From a virus (Duplodnaviria > Heunggongvirae > Uroviricota > Caudoviricetes): a stretch of DNA of 9,265 nucleotides. Location of the stretch: IMG/VR virus record IMGVR_UViG_2541047843_000007. One strand, written 5' to 3'. Both the position numbers and the translations under genes were made by a program. Below the pieces are notes generated by a model that was not told the origin of the DNA, did no database searches, and saw nothing but the letters and a program-made list of their open reading frames with translations. Shown one piece after another: positions 229 to 9,265 of this stretch. Position 1 is the first letter of the stretch, and every line of letters starts with the position of its first letter.

Positions 229-3174
229 TTAGTGCTTCCCTTCTATTAAGTCTAACCTAGCTTTTATTCTTTCTATTTCTCTGCGCTGCCATGCTGCCTC
301 GATATAGAATAAGAGATCAGGTCTGACCCCCCATCTAGATCCTGCTGGCGTTATTTCAACGCGCTCAATGATGTCTTCCATTACCATCACTGGATTATCA
401 TCCTCATCAACAATGATGCTCCCGTCATTATCAGTCAGCGGCATTTCCCTTTGGCCAGTAATGACGTCATCATATACTGCGGGATAATCGTCATAGCAAA
501 GAAAGGCATAGCGGCATGTTGTGCTTTCTTCTTCCATGAGTCCGTGAGAAATAAGAACATCACGAAGTTGCTGCGCGATTACACCATGATGTATCCTCGC
601 CCCTTCTTCCCCCTTTATAGCGACAGCGTTCAGCCATTTATAAGCGATATACCTGACGTCACCCCAGGCATCCAGCAATGTTTCGTCAGGAGAGACCGGC
701 TCTGTCTTTAATGTTCCGTCACTGGTAACCACAGGATTGGAGCCAAGATAAACTATCGAGAACCTGTTTCCCGGACCACCAAGAGCATTTACATTATCAA
801 GATAAGGTTTAACATCTCCGTTCTCAAAAAGATGTTCGAGTGCGTTATATACCGCGCGACGTGGAGTACTGCTTCTGGAACCATGCAACGTTATCATTGC
901 ACCATCTGCTGAAGACGTTGTTTCACCGCCGCTAACGATTAATCTCTGAGCGGTAACATCATCAGACGGTACTTTCTTCGCAATAATGGCGTAATTACCC
1001 TCAAGTTTGACTTCCGCGCGAACTTGTCCTGATGTACCTGCATGGACAGTCAGTGACTGGACGGCAACATCATCTGTGAAATCAACGGGTACAGGAACCG
1101 TCCTCACGCCTGACGTCGACATAAAAGTAGGAAGCGTTCTGTTAGGAGTGGCTCCGTAGACAAAATCCCTTGAAACAAATTCTTCCTGTTTAATTTTCAC
1201 CCTGAAACAATACAAATCAGCCGGGTGACCATCGTGAACATAAGGATATTTTCTGTTGTTATCCCCTATGCTCCATGGGTTTAGAAAGTCTTCCCCACCG
1301 AAAATGTAGTACAGCCAGTTGTCTTTGATACAAACTGAACCAACACCAACCGCAGAGTTAACTATTCCGCCCTGATAAATCTGATCAGTAACATTAACCC
1401 ACTCTACATTATCCAGACTCCACTCATTGACGTTAACTCTGGTCATAAATGTTCTTGGATAGTTTCCTGCATAACGGTTATCAGGTTCTCCTCCTTCCCA
1501 CTCACCAAATGCGCGCTCACTGCCAAAAATAATCAGCTCATCGCCAACTTTGGCAAAAGGAAGGTTTGAGTGATGAACATTATTTGGGAAGCGAAGAGAA
1601 TTCCATGATGTACCTAAATCAGAGCTTCTGTGCAATGAACTACCGGGTTGAGTACTTAATGTCCCCCTGGTCGTCAGATACAGAATGCCATCATAATATT
1701 TTACACATGGCTCAGATGCATTCGCCTCATATTCTGCAGGTATGCGTCTGCGAACAAAGCTACCAGGAGAACCGAAAGCATCAGAGAAATAGAGTATCCC
1801 AAGCTCGCGTGGACCAATATCACCATTATGGTAGCCAACAGCAAAACTGTTATCGCTAATCGTCGCAAAACTGTGAATCTCAGTAACAGGAGTGCTTCCG
1901 TCAACAAAAGAAGGAATAGTTCCAAGACTGGTTTTTCTCCATGGTGACGAGTGAAATGATGTACCAAAACTCCAGTATCTACCCTCGTTATTCTGATCCA
2001 CATCCTGGGTATTTTGCGTCGTAACTGTAAAAGTATTTTTATCAATAACAGTAGTCACCGTCATATTCCCGGTAACACCTGTAACACCAGAGTTTGAGAA
2101 GTTGACAAAATCACCAGCAAATAATCCGTGATCAGTAATGCGAATATAAGCGACTTGCTGATTTGCTGCTTTCGTTATACCACCATAAACGCGAAGGCTG
2201 CGACTCATTGGGCGATCCCACAACTCTGCAACCTGCAGTTTATTTCCGCTCACGGTCCGCGTCTCAATTACAGCAAAAAGGCGATTTCTGACAACCCCCA
2301 TACTCATGCAGTGATAGTTAACTGTGGGATAGTTTTCATGTAAATCTGTAAGCCATTCCGGCGTTGTCCAGGTCTTCCCGTCATCTCCTGAGCGAACCCA
2401 TGCAACATGGAGGTTATTTACACCATGGCGGTCTCCAGCCATAAAAGGCGCATAGATGACATTGTCATATACAAACGTTTTATCCTGCGTCCAGGCGTTG
2501 TACCACGGTGTATCTGTAATTTTAAATAACTCTCCCTGGATAAAATCTTCAGAAACATAAAAAAGAGGCTGACCCGGTATTCTCTCAAATAAAAAACGAG
2601 CATTTTTAAATCGACTGACATCTGGAAGAGTTGATACTTTAAAAGTAAGCCCTCGCCCATCTATCTTTTCACCACCTGTTGCAACAGAAAGTAATTCTGA
2701 TAGAGCTGATGTATCATCATGAACACCATCACCAATAGCCCCCCAACCTCTTACATCATAACTGTCTCTCCATCTTGCTATCTGAAGTTTTGGGTATTTA
2801 TTCGCTCCATCTGGGTCTTCTAATTGCTGCCGTAGTTGATCAGGATCATACTTCAGCACATTCTGGAAATAGAACTGCTGTACGCCATACGCATCGTACA
2901 CAGCCATAGAATGGCCTTGCACAGTTACGAACTTGGCAATCCGTCCGTTATATACAGGGTAACCAGCAGCGTTAATGATGATTGGTTGCGAAACAGGAAC
3001 GTGAGAGCCGTCTTCGTTCTCTACATAAACCTGAATCCGGTTTTCAGGATTTACCGGGTCAGTGTCAATTTTACCGATATAAATTTTGCCATTGGCTACG
3101 GCTTTAAAAGAACGCGCCATAGTGAAGAGTTGCGAAGGCATCGATACAATCACATTGGCTGTAATGTCTGTCAT
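229..3174 (-). CDS. Tailspike protein with endosialidase (endo-N-acetylneuraminidase) module, 981 aa: P22-type head-binding N-terminus, sialidase central region, C-terminal intramolecular chaperone-like domain.
   Basis: Single uninterrupted 981-codon ORF. N-terminal ~110 aa (MTDITANV...[21 protein letters not shown]...VYNG...[12 protein letters not shown]...NVLKYDPDQ) closely matches the P22 gp9 head-binding domain as I recall it. Two sialidase Asp-box motifs (S-x-D-x-G-x-T-W) are present: SGDDGKTW and SSDLGTSW. The C-terminal ~150 aa resembles the autocleaving chaperone domain of K1-phage endosialidases. GGAG lies ~10 nt upstream of the ATG at 3174. Confidence 0.9.
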
Positions 3175-3274: not shown

Positions 3275-3718
3275 TCAGTAATTATGTACTGAAGGAGGTA
3301 ATTCTTTATTCTTAAGTCTCATCCATGCGGAAAGATTCGTTGGTCCGTCTGGCTCATTGATATCAACATCTCGTGTGTGATTGATTAAAACGTCTCTCGC
3401 CATATCGATAATACGGGAGAACTCATAACCGCAGTCATGACATCTGCCGGAATAGTTCGATTGAATTTGTTTTAGCGCCGGATACAGTTCGCGGAATAAT
3501 GCCTGTGAGCGGTTGGCATAATCCCATAGCCATACAAGGCTGTTTGCTTCTTTTGCAGAAAGCTCGTTGGTTTTCTTCTCTTGTTTGCCGATGAACTCAC
3601 CTTCAAGCACTACCCTGTGGATGTACTCTACTGCTTGTGGTATCTGAGATGCATCAAGCTCTTCAATACTTTCCACATTGAAACGCTGATGAATCATTGC
3701 ATAAGCTTCTGGGTACAT
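3275..3718 (-). CDS. Hypothetical protein, 147 aa, no recognised family; possibly the 3' remnant of a longer gene cut by IS911.
   Basis: 444-nt ORF on the tailspike strand, followed by a terminator. No convincing SD before the first ATG. The frame stays open upstream into the IS911 end (stop only at 3746..3748, inside the IS), consistent with 5' truncation. Contains a CHDC motif, but no domain I can name. Confidence 0.45.
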
Positions 3719-3808
3719 TAGATGCTTTTTGCTGACTGAAGTGGTTTACTGAATTTGGCCACCTGAACAGAGGTGATATGCTCACCTCAGAACAACACAG
3801 GTGCCATA

Positions 3809-4956
<1,148 letters not shown>

Positions 4957-4986: not shown

Positions 4987-5157
4987 ATGCAACAGTTCGC
5001 TATTGCAGGGGCGGCATCGGTTCGCCCTTTCAACCCGATTTTATCGGTACAGCATTCACGAAAAAACATTTTAACCGGAGCAGACTTTAAACAACCAAGA
5101 ATGAAAAGCTTGCTCGAAAAGCTTTGGGATATTTTGAAACAACAAGGCCGTCCATGA
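4987..5157 (+). CDS. Small hypothetical ORF (56 aa from the ATG at 4987); possibly the distal part of a gene truncated by IS911.
   Basis: The ATG is the first triplet after the IS911 right end and has no SD. The stop overlaps the next start (ATGA at 5154..5157), suggesting membership of an operon. Confidence 0.3.
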   Translation: MQQFAIAGAASVRPFNPILSVQHSRKNILTGADFKQPRMKSLLEKLWDILKQQGRP

Positions 5158-5312
5158 GTTTTACGGATAACTGGTCAGACGAAGAATTCATTCGTCAGAT
5201 AAAAGAATTAATCGGTAACGAAGGAGATATTCATGTCACTTGCAACCACAGTGAAGGAGAGCAAGTTACAGAGACGCATGTACACGCAGAAAGCTCTCTG
5301 GTATCGCCATAA
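5154..5312 (+). CDS. Small hypothetical early protein, 52 aa, immediately upstream of erf.
   Basis: ATG at 5154 with AAGG about 7 nt upstream. ATGA overlap with the preceding ORF. The position matches the small kil/arf-type genes that precede erf in P22-like phages, but no sequence recognition is claimed. Confidence 0.4.
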   Translation: MSFTDNWSDEEFIRQIKELIGNEGDIHVTCNHSEGEQVTETHVHAESSLVSP

Positions 5313-5413: not shown

Positions 5414-6019
5414 ATGAGCAAAGAATTTTACGCAAGACTGGCAGCTATTCAGGAGAATCTGAACGCGCCAAAGAATCAGTACAACTCATTCGGCAAATAT
5501 AAATACAGAAGCTGCGAAGATATTCTTGAAGGCGTTAAGCCGTTACTGAACGGTCTGTTTTTATCAATCAGCGATGAAGTTGTGTTGATTGGTGATCGGT
5601 ATTACGTGAAAGCCACGGCAACTATTACCGATGGCGAAAACAGTCATACGGCAACCGCTCTTGCACGAGAGGAAGAAAGCAAGAAAGGAATGGATTCTGC
5701 ACAAGTTACGGGAGCTACAAGCTCTTATGCACGCAAGTATTGCCTCAATGGTTTGTTCGGCATTGATGATGCGAAAGATGCAGATACAGACGAGCATAAA
5801 CATCAGCAGAACGCAGCAGCAAAGCAATCAAAACCATCACTTACACCTGAACAGGTTCTAAAAGCATTCACTGACGCAGCAATGCAGAAAAACACCGTAG
5901 AAGAGCTTAAACAGGCGTTCGCCAAAGCGTGGAAGATGCTCGAAGGGACGCCGGAGCAGCACAAAGCGCAGGACGTTTACAACATCAGACGAGACGAATT
6001 AGAAGGGGCAACTGCTTAA
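5414..6019 (+). CDS. erf: Erf (essential recombination function) single-strand annealing protein, 201 aa.
   Basis: N-terminus MSKEFYARLAAIQENLNAPKNQYNSFGKYKYRSCEDILEGVKPLL matches P22 Erf as recalled. The tool ORF begins at a TTG at 5384; the ATG at 5414 is preferred. Its stop overlaps the next start (TAATG). Confidence 0.8.
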   Translation: MSKEFYARLAAIQENLNAPKNQYNSFGKYKYRSCEDILEGVKPLLNGLFLSISDEVVLIGDRYYVKATATITDGENSHTATALAREEESKKGMDSAQVTGATSSYARKYCLNGLFGIDDAKDADTDEHKHQQNAAAKQSKPSLTPEQVLKAFTDAAMQKNTVEELKQAFAKAWKMLEGTPEQHKAQDVYNIRRDELEGATA

Positions 6020-6402
6020 TGGCACATTCGATTACAGTAAGACTAAACAAACCCGCAAGAGAGTTTCAGGGCGGGGAAAATATCGGATTCAACATCCGTG
6101 CTGGCGTTCAGTATTACGATCGCCAGACAAAAAAGAAAGAATGGACAAACTACAGCGCCGTTGTATTTGCCAAGCCGGGAGCGCAAGCGGATTACTATCG
6201 TAGCGTTCTGGTTGAAGGAGGCATTGTAGAAATTACCGGAGAAAACATCAGGGTTGATGTTTATCAGGGGCAAAATGGTCAATCAATCACTCTTGAATTA
6301 CTGAATGCAAAGATTGGATTTGCAACTTCAGGAAACAGCCAACAGCAGCAAAGTAGCAATCATCAAAATAATCCTGAATACGACGATTCCATCCCATTCT
6401 GA
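6019..6402 (+). CDS. Phage single-stranded DNA-binding-like protein, 127 aa, with an SSB-type acidic C-terminal tip.
   Basis: ATG at 6019 overlaps the erf stop (TAATG), suggesting translational coupling. The protein ends in DDSIPF (compare the canonical SSB tail DDDIPF), preceded by a Q/S/N-rich linker. The N-terminal ~100 aa has an OB-fold-like alternation (EW..YSAVVF). The tool ORF from 5929 is an upstream extension overlapping erf. Confidence 0.65.
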   Translation: MAHSITVRLNKPAREFQGGENIGFNIRAGVQYYDRQTKKKEWTNYSAVVFAKPGAQADYYRSVLVEGGIVEITGENIRVDVYQGQNGQSITLELLNAKIGFATSGNSQQQQSSNHQNNPEYDDSIPF

Positions 6403-6425: not shown

Positions 6426-6722
6426 ATGCCAGCGCCTTTGTATGGTGCGGATGACCCGCGCCGCTGTTCCGGCAATTCCGTATCGGAGGTGCTGGATAAA
6501 TTCAGAAAAAACTACGATCGAATAATGTCTCTACCGCAGGAAACGAAAGAGGAAAAGGAATTTCGCCACTGTATATGGCTTGCAGAGAAAGAAGAACGCG
6601 AGCGAATTTACCAGACATCAATCCGACCATTCCGCAAAGCCACATATACCCACTTCCCTGAATATATCGACCCGCGCCTGCGTAATTACCGCTCACGCTA
6701 TGGCGCTATCAGTAATGACTGA
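6426..6722 (+). CDS. abc2: Abc2-like anti-RecBCD protein, 98 aa (assignment from position and size; exact sequence not recalled).
   Basis: ATG at 6426 with AAGGA 7 nt upstream. 98 codons, the size I recall for P22 Abc2. It lies downstream of erf in the same operon, as abc genes do in P22. Confidence 0.55.
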   Translation: MPAPLYGADDPRRCSGNSVSEVLDKFRKNYDRIMSLPQETKEEKEFRHCIWLAEKEERERIYQTSIRPFRKATYTHFPEYIDPRLRNYRSRYGAISND

Positions 6723-9064: not shown

Positions 9065-9265
9065 ATGCAACACGAACTACAACCTGATTCACTGGTTGAT
9101 TTGAAATTCATCATGGCCGATACTGGCTTCGGTAAAACCTTCATCTATGACCGGATTAAGTCCGGCGACCTGCCAAAAGCCAAAGTTATCCACGGGCGAG
9201 CAAGATGGTTATATCGTGACCATTGTGAATTCAAAAATAAGCTCTTAAGCCGCGCCAATGGGTAA
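9065..9265 (+). CDS. Excisionase / AlpA-family winged-helix DNA-binding protein, 66 aa; an integrase gene is expected just beyond the window.
   Basis: ATG at 9065 with GGAGA about 9 nt upstream. Translation (FIMADTGFGKTFIYDRIKSGDLPKAKVIHGRARWLYRDHCEF) fits the AlpA/Xis helix-turn-helix pattern. It is the last gene of the early-left arm, where xis sits in P22-like phages. Confidence 0.6.
   Translation: MQHELQPDSLVDLKFIMADTGFGKTFIYDRIKSGDLPKAKVIHGRARWLYRDHCEFKNKLLSRANG

Follow-up and report, generated by a model that had tools for sequence, protein, structure and literature searches.

The stretch of viral DNA analysed here, hereafter the window (9,265 nucleotides; Caudoviricetes; IMG/VR virus record IMGVR_UViG_2541047843_000007), contains a gene of the SSB-1b type that probably encodes a single-stranded DNA (ssDNA)-binding protein (SSB) acting in the phage recombination module. 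The gene occupies positions 6019..6402 on the plus strand, stop codon counted, and is the second cistron of an arf-erf-ssb-abc2 recombination module in the early-left operon. An original prediction, made from the nucleotide sequence, had noted a short OB-fold-like protein with an SSB-like tail encoded at this place and had proposed that it could help Erf-mediated annealing or compete with host SSB for its partners; the description proves correct throughout, and the comparisons that follow support what was read into it.

The open reading frame (ORF) was read directly from ATG at 6019-6021 to TGA at 6400-6402 and specifies the 127-residue protein MAHSITVRLNKPAREFQGGENIGF...NHQNNPEYDDSIPF, which begins MAHSITVRL and ends NNPEYDDSIPF. 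A mechanically produced ORF list puts the 5′ end of this frame upstream, at a GTG at 5929; since each of 108 full-length homologues begins at the position of this ATG (as MAHSIT or MHSIT), the start of the gene is placed at 6019. The protein is 100% identical to ECRS218_0055 of CUS-3, a phage of Escherichia coli (E. coli) K1 strain RS218, where it is annotated 'hypothetical protein' (CUS-3 record CP000711). It is also 93.7% identical over 127 amino acids (tblastn) to gp40 of phage HK97, with which it shares the length class, the slot between erf and abc2, and a −1 overlap with erf; the two differ in the recorded tip, which is DDSNPILI in HK97, and at G18 of the window copy. Zheng et al. report that HK97 gp40 has a predicted fold (AF3) like that of bacterial SSBs and is hardly, if at all, recognisable as similar to them by sequence, and they named it SSB-1b (Genome Res 2025, PMC12315714). 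Codon 18 (window 6070-6072) specifies Gly in the window and CUS-3 copies and Ala in >90% of the family (EFQGGEN versus EFQAGEN).

Direct sequence routes to SSBs gave little: a PDB search with the single sequence yielded one marginal SSB match (7d8j, E = 0.036), and a search with the family profile yielded 4dam at E = 0.88. Fold and profile-profile comparison were therefore needed. The AlphaFold2 model, built on 25 diverse homologues, has a mean predicted local distance difference test (pLDDT) score of 84.8, with values >90 for residues 1-100, and is composed of a β-barrel with one helix (residues 55-63), a disordered segment (residues 108-121), and then the tip. The modelled barrel has the OB fold with SSB topology, and this putative ssDNA-binding domain (residues 1-103; 6019..6327, plus strand) has a calculated pI of ∼9.0. 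Among the top 50 Foldseek matches in the PDB, all are bacterial, mitochondrial or apicoplast SSBs or PriB (E∼1e-4 to 1e-3; template modelling score ∼0.45-0.55), and in the viral structure library BFVD the model matches phage SSBs. At the level of profiles, PHROG 44 ('single strand DNA binding protein') matches residues 2-127 with E = 3.4e-29 (profile positions 89-228 of 271), and hhalign aligns the family with E. coli SSB at 94.5% probability over 57 columns. The alignment and structure comparison with E. coli and phage SSBs that had been suggested as a check thus point consistently and specifically to an SSB, and the OB-fold-like character of the protein is borne out by a confidently predicted fold. 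One distant family member additionally matches PF00436 from end to end, though below the threshold (E = 0.005). The window protein itself is only a remote homologue within the bacterial-type SSB superfamily; judged by its predicted fold, it is related to bacterial SSB at a great distance and would be expected to bind ssDNA.

In E. coli SSB, the residues that stack on ssDNA are W40, W54, F60, and W88. With the E. coli sequence checked residue by residue against PDB entries 1eqq and 4mz9, the hhalign alignment pairs these four with Y32, W42, F50, and Y82 of the window protein. All four positions are aromatic, and across the 108 full-length homologues the first is Tyr in 107, the second Trp in 107, the third Phe in 108, and the fourth Tyr or Phe in 108.

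Downstream of the barrel, a short Q/N/S-rich linker (residues 104-121; 6328..6381, plus strand), predicted to be disordered (pLDDT <50 for residues 108-121), leads to the acidic C-terminal tip DDSIPF (6382..6399, plus strand). The tip had been called a near-copy of the bacterial SSB C terminus, and so it proves: it is identical to the E. coli sequence DDDIPF at five of six positions, Ser replacing the third Asp, and the aromatic residue at −7 and the acidic residue at −8 are kept as well (NNPEYDDSIPF versus PPMDFDDDIPF). Using typical residue frequencies, we estimate that a C-terminal D-D-x-I-P-F would arise by chance in ∼3e-7 of proteins. An acidic (I/P/A)PF end is retained by 81 of the 108 full-length homologues, which are 50-97% identical in the OB domain and carry tips that include DDSIPF, DDDIPF, DDEPPF, DDAPPF, and NVDIPF. 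Given this expected rate and this retention, the tail is no chance match. The linker, by contrast with the tip, is hypervariable in sequence and in length (14 to 106 amino acids), and the tip persists despite this variation, a pattern that marks functional short linear motifs on disordered tethers. Neither the tail nor the conserved aromatics of SSB-1b are discussed in the accessible text of PMC12315714. The window protein thus resembles E. coli SSB (PF00436/TIGR00621) in OB fold, four aromatic stacking positions, disordered linker, and acidic IPF tip, whereas identity in structural alignments is ∼15-18%, the linker is ∼18 rather than ∼60 amino acids long, and the whole protein has 127 rather than 178 residues.

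The genomic setting places the gene beside a strand-annealing gene in the early-left recombination module, in the order erf, SSB-1b-type gene, abc2. Upstream lies erf (5414..6019, plus strand; 201 amino acids), which encodes the presumed partner, an ssDNA-annealing protein (PF04404, E = 3.5e-44; PHROG 155), and downstream lies abc2 (6426..6722, plus strand), the last gene of the module, which encodes an anti-RecBCD protein (PF11043, E = 4.3e-62; PHROG 656); these two matches also establish the slot between erf and abc2 that the original prediction had assigned. A small arf-like ORF (5154..5312, plus strand) is located 5′ of erf; its match to PHROG 2123 (E = 6e-41) covers residues 11-62 of the listed ORF. 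It corresponds to ECRS218_0052 of CUS-3, and its positional counterpart in locus L172 carries PF17585 (Phage_Arf).

The predicted TAATG overlap of erf with the following gene can be read directly at 6017..6021 (plus strand), where the erf stop codon TAA (6017-6019) shares a nucleotide with the ATG at 6019-6021. A Shine-Dalgarno-like GAAGGGG (6002..6008, plus strand), which may serve in initiation, lies inside the 3′ end of erf, 10 nucleotides 5′ of that ATG. The TAATG overlap is the arrangement expected for translational coupling, and the two genes are probably coupled. The −1 overlap after erf is present in essentially all related erf loci regardless of the type of SSB downstream, and the P22 erf/abc1 junction likewise has a −1 overlap.

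The association of the family with annealase genes extends well beyond CUS-3. SSB-1b family genes lie directly 3′ of Erf genes in CUS-3, HK97, Edwardsiella phage GF-2, Serratia and Chimaeribacter prophages, and metagenomic phages; directly 3′ of a gene for a Sak4-like AAA_24 recombinase in a Leminorella prophage; and directly 3′ of genes for RecT and a PD-(D/E)xK-type nuclease in a Vibrio phage. In a Drexlerviridae phage, a ∼29%-identical family member follows RecE and a recombinase. Stop and start codons overlap, as TAATG or ATGA, at six of the nine SSB-1b junctions examined. About 150 IMG/VR loci were recovered with the Erf N-terminal domain, and in these the slot after erf, entered by a −1 overlap, is filled by an SSB-1b-type gene or, in more distant phages, by a canonical SSB or a third SSB type, nearly all with an IPF-type tip. 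Because annealase-SSB junctions recur across loci with different SSBs, 'annealase, then SSB, translationally linked' is a general arrangement in which the SSB type is interchangeable. Two candidate rules for the pairing were considered. That the flavour of the tail follows the type of recombinase (PPF with Sak4, as in HK620) was rejected, as the Serratia and Chimaeribacter members with PPF tips follow Erf; a third PPF-tipped member (Rahnella) has a transposase upstream, and a member with the tip DFDDDIPF follows Sak4. The type of Erf C-terminal domain predicts the type of SSB only loosely, one domain type preceding SSB-1b, canonical SSBs, the third SSB type, and an occasional non-SSB gene.

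A subset of the SSBs encoded 3′ of erf or sak4 (loci L096, L152, L205, L214, L218, L219, L222, L231, L247, and L249-L252) end in ...PFPRH(A/T)IH(A/V)I, an IPF-like motif followed by a conserved extension of ∼8 residues. Because of this extension the Phe carboxylate is not free in these proteins, and such ends may form a distinct tail class.

Several known systems occupy the same genomic slot. The best functional model for the window protein is HkaK of phage HK620 ('SSB-2', N4 gp45-like), a bona fide SSB shown by experiment to bind ssDNA and to enhance both annealing by Sak4 in vitro and recombineering in vivo, the stimulation requiring its last six residues, NDYPPF (Hutinet et al., PMC5928155). 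An N-terminal scar cost the HK620 SSB affinity. Its gene lies in the same order, recombinase-SSB-abc2, and its tip is SSB-like; it differs from the window protein in being larger (21 kDa), in belonging to an unrelated sequence family, DUF669 (PMC5928155), and in having Sak4 rather than Erf as partner. The window protein has no DUF669 match in Pfam at E≤0.1, and HkaK is a positional and functional analogue only. Canonical phage SSB-1 proteins of the Sf6/ES18 type, encoded 3′ of erf or sak4, share the slot, the overlap, and a DDDIPF-type tip. Annealases of the RecT type need the seven C-terminal residues of SSB (Filsinger et al., bioRxiv 10.1101/2020.04.14.041095), and in Firmicutes phages ∼80% of erf genes have an ssb partner (PMC8093625). 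P22 Abc1 also sits between erf and abc2 and has the same start overlap with the erf stop, but it has 94 amino acids and no SSB-like tail, and BLASTP gave no alignment with the window protein at E≤100. The 94-residue 'ssb protein' of phage HF4s had suggested that Abc1 might be a truncated homologue; this was rejected, as Abc1 is unrelated and the HF4s gene is frameshifted. Retron-Eco8 senses phage SSBs, with T7 SSB (gp2.5) having been studied and SECphi4 SSB cited. A search of the window protein against the PADLOC anti-phage defence models matched 0 families.

Since SSB-1b, HkaK, the RecT-SSB relation, and erf-ssb pairing have all been published, the present finding correctly recovers a type of module that was known before and a family that computational annotation had given a name. 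It confirms a known design principle, namely that phage annealases usually travel with their own SSB. Its practical value is for annotation. Of 5426 complete E. coli genomes, 579 (∼11%) have the gene; among the matches listed, the RefSeq label in E. coli is always 'hypothetical protein', next to an 'ERF family protein'. The label persists because so divergent a family is covered by no model in either Pfam or NCBIfam, which leaves a gap in RefSeq, Pfam, and NCBIfam for a common E. coli gene. A search of 1.84 billion representative proteins with the family profile returned only 218 clusters (50% identity) at E≤1e-3; the family is thus small and unmerged with canonical SSBs at the sequence level. 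The Erf/SSB-1b pair, at 201 and 127 amino acids, is small, naturally adjoining and probably coupled, and native to E. coli, and could possibly serve as a compact recombineering cassette.

The comparison of recombinases also drew attention to the C-terminal portion of Erf (residues 146-199; 5849..6010, plus strand), a helical-looking, portable module of ∼55 amino acids identified by BLASTP and alignment A3. BLASTP aligns it, at 52% identity and E = 5e-14, with the final 54 amino acids of the Leminorella Sak4-like AAA_24 recombinase (L004:3834-3995), and outside this shared domain the two proteins are unrelated. The Leminorella Sak4 gene is followed, with a −1 overlap, by its SSB-1b family gene. 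Among 80 IMG/VR relatives of the Leminorella Sak4, the domain is present in all of the ∼79 with a readable end, the ORF of one running off its contig; an SSB gene comes next at a spacing of 0, −1, or −4 in roughly two thirds, and other small genes follow in the rest. The Erf proteins of P22 and CUS-3 are nearly identical over ∼140 residues and diverge in the last ∼55, the P22 domain being a divergent version of the module. No relation to the C-terminal domain of Red-beta was found with hhalign (probability 0.1%). A PDB profile search (A3 columns 33-55) matched only the 23-residue helix ERQAKAVQVYNSRKSELDAA of colicins E2, E3, and E9 (E∼1e-3), which lies in the receptor-binding coiled coil of these toxins; the match, though oddly specific, is probably compositional.

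Because the domain is common to two unrelated annealase cores that adjoin SSB genes, it is a candidate interaction domain for SSB or another partner, and for the long-unassigned C-terminal domain of Erf it suggests a function that can be tested. It could even be a receptor, carried from one recombinase to another, to which SSBs dock by their acidic (I/P)PF tip, a proposal that we put forward as speculative and rather unlikely. If it were correct, a recombinase core with this domain and any IPF-tipped SSB would constitute an exchangeable two-gene cassette. This would explain the free mixing of annealase cores with SSB types in lambdoid phages, and the domain would offer recombineering a transferable handle for fitting annealases to a chosen SSB.

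We propose that the SSB-1b-type protein most likely serves its recombination module as a cognate SSB, with a tail that brings in the annealase, host partners, or both. In this model, reprogramming of RecBCD by Abc2 would expose ssDNA at the ends of the phage DNA, which the SSB-1b-type protein would coat through its basic OB domain and conserved stacking aromatics. The acidic tip, a mimic of the host SSB docking tip, would then recruit Erf (perhaps by contact with the C-terminal domain of that protein), host proteins that bind the SSB tail, or both. The ssDNA would be handed to Erf for annealing of complementary strands, leading to genome circularisation and recombination-dependent replication, with the SSB-1b-type protein made in step with Erf through the TAATG overlap if, as the junction suggests, translation is coupled. 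Four elements of this scheme we infer rather than observe: ssDNA binding, the oligomeric state, the tail-Erf contact, and the translational coupling. Assistance to Erf annealing and engagement of, or competition for, host partners are both plausible; the former is better supported, because the family adjoins at least four unrelated kinds of annealase and because of the HK620 precedent. Assignment of any specific partner to the tail is tentative.

The terminal Pro-Phe and the flanking acidic residues are the key determinants of interactions with the SSB C terminus. That the window tip reproduces these features so closely lends weight to an account in which the main job of the protein is to present a host-like SSB tip, and not to serve Erf. 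Host SSB partners (PriA, the χ subunit, RecO, RecQ, ExoI, RecJ, and others) would be brought onto phage ssDNA or titrated from host SSB, so that phage replication and recombination are favoured or 3′ ends are protected. Most family members in enterobacterial prophages have host-like ends (DDxIPF or DFDDDIPF), a single shared host partner is a simpler explanation for a family found beside four unrelated recombinase types than four specific contacts, and the HK620 SSB stimulates strand exchange by host RecA as well (PMC5928155). Against it, many members have PPF-type or non-IPF ends unlike the host tip, and the tight stop/start overlap with the annealase gene suggests a stoichiometric phage partner. 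We consider such host-directed activity possible but, as the main job, rather unlikely; it is in any case compatible with a cognate recombination SSB. The fold and tail are also those of replicative SSBs, and the Leminorella operon that includes a family member also encodes a DNA polymerase III θ-like protein, which would suit a general replication SSB for lagging-strand or rolling-circle ssDNA whose position by erf reflects operon history only. Such a role is improbable: the gene is in the early-left recombination module, the CUS-3 replication genes O and P lie across the immunity region, the family consistently adjoins annealase genes of different families, and, by the count in PMC12315714, 177 of the 246 lambdoid phages that have a Rec module lack an SSB gene and rely on host SSB for replication. 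Still further from the evidence is a non-SSB OB-fold protein, for example a PriB-like adaptor or other nucleic-acid-binding factor, with an IPF end acquired by convergence. PriB has neither a disordered linker nor an acidic tip, conserved aromatics occupy all four SSB stacking positions in this family, and OB domain, linker, and tip match SSB part for part, which makes this explanation very improbable.

A number of observations weigh against assignment of the gene as a recombination SSB. The protein has no Pfam match at E≤0.1 and scores 19.1 bits (E = 1.3e-3) against the NCBIfam model TIGR00621 ('ssb'), below its cut-off of 53.95, so that neither this threshold nor the gathering score of PF00436 is reached; the family profile, moreover, does not reach canonical SSBs. 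SSB-1b-type proteins still await experimental study according to PMC12315714, and P22 Erf works without a phage SSB. An IPF-type end is absent from ∼20% of homologues, mostly environmental-metagenome members. In the GenBank record of HK97, a single additional A among the final codons of gp40 converts the tip from DDSIPF to DDSNPILI (L014:2370-2390, compared with window 6388-6402); it is an error of sequencing or else a natural variant lacking the tail, in a laboratory phage that grows well. The HF4s 'ssb protein' (94 amino acids; L002:3136-3535) is a frameshifted copy, the rest of which is annotated as a separate 36-residue ORF. Given the altered HK97 tip and the frameshifted HF4s copy, both the tip and the gene would be dispensable for laboratory growth. 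Since tail flavour and Erf C-terminal domain type both track SSB type poorly, covariation provides no evidence for a specific Erf-tail contact. Lastly, the PL promoter region of the operon in the window has been lost through a deletion mediated by an insertion sequence (IS), and no promoter-like site was found between this element, ISEc52, and the SSB-1b-type gene. Four of the database homologues (P0086, P0116, P0046, and P0054) are frameshifted much as the HF4s copy is.

The loss of the promoter reflects the nature of the source. The erf-to-abc2 stretch (1.37 kb) is 100% identical to CUS-3 and 97% identical to many lambdoid phages, such as HK542, HK633, Sf101, mEp213, and Stx phages, and the window belongs to an IS-truncated, CUS-3-like prophage remnant of ∼12 kb at argW and is not an intact phage. 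It contains, in order, the tailspike gene (229-3174, minus strand), a truncated ant gene (3275-3718, minus strand), the transposase ORFs of ISEc52 (∼3773-4956), the arf-like ORF, erf, the SSB-1b-type gene, abc2, ea-type genes, and torI. In the closest genome the ISEc52 transposase is frameshifted. At the ISEc52 junction, all of the DNA that would separate ant from arf has been deleted, the PL promoter and N with it. This arrangement is found in only 3 complete E. coli genomes, and a search for σ70-like promoters between 4900 and 6800 found none, against 3.0 expected by chance. These features suggest that the gene could be a silent relic in this particular genome: with the early-left promoter and N removed, the protein would not normally be made in the remnant. 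On the other side, the reading frame is uninterrupted, with 100% identity to its counterpart in the complete CUS-3 record, and read-through from the IS or weak promoters may give some expression. We regard silence as nearly, though not quite, as credible as its opposite; it bears on expression in this host and not on the identity of the protein as a probable recombination SSB. At the right end of the window, the ORF at 9065-9265 (MQHELQPDSLVDLKF...) is annotated in RefSeq as torI in the matching genome; TorI is a KplE1-type excisionase and TorR inhibitor. At the other end of the prophage, past the tailspike gene and an acyltransferase gene, is the integrase gene intS.

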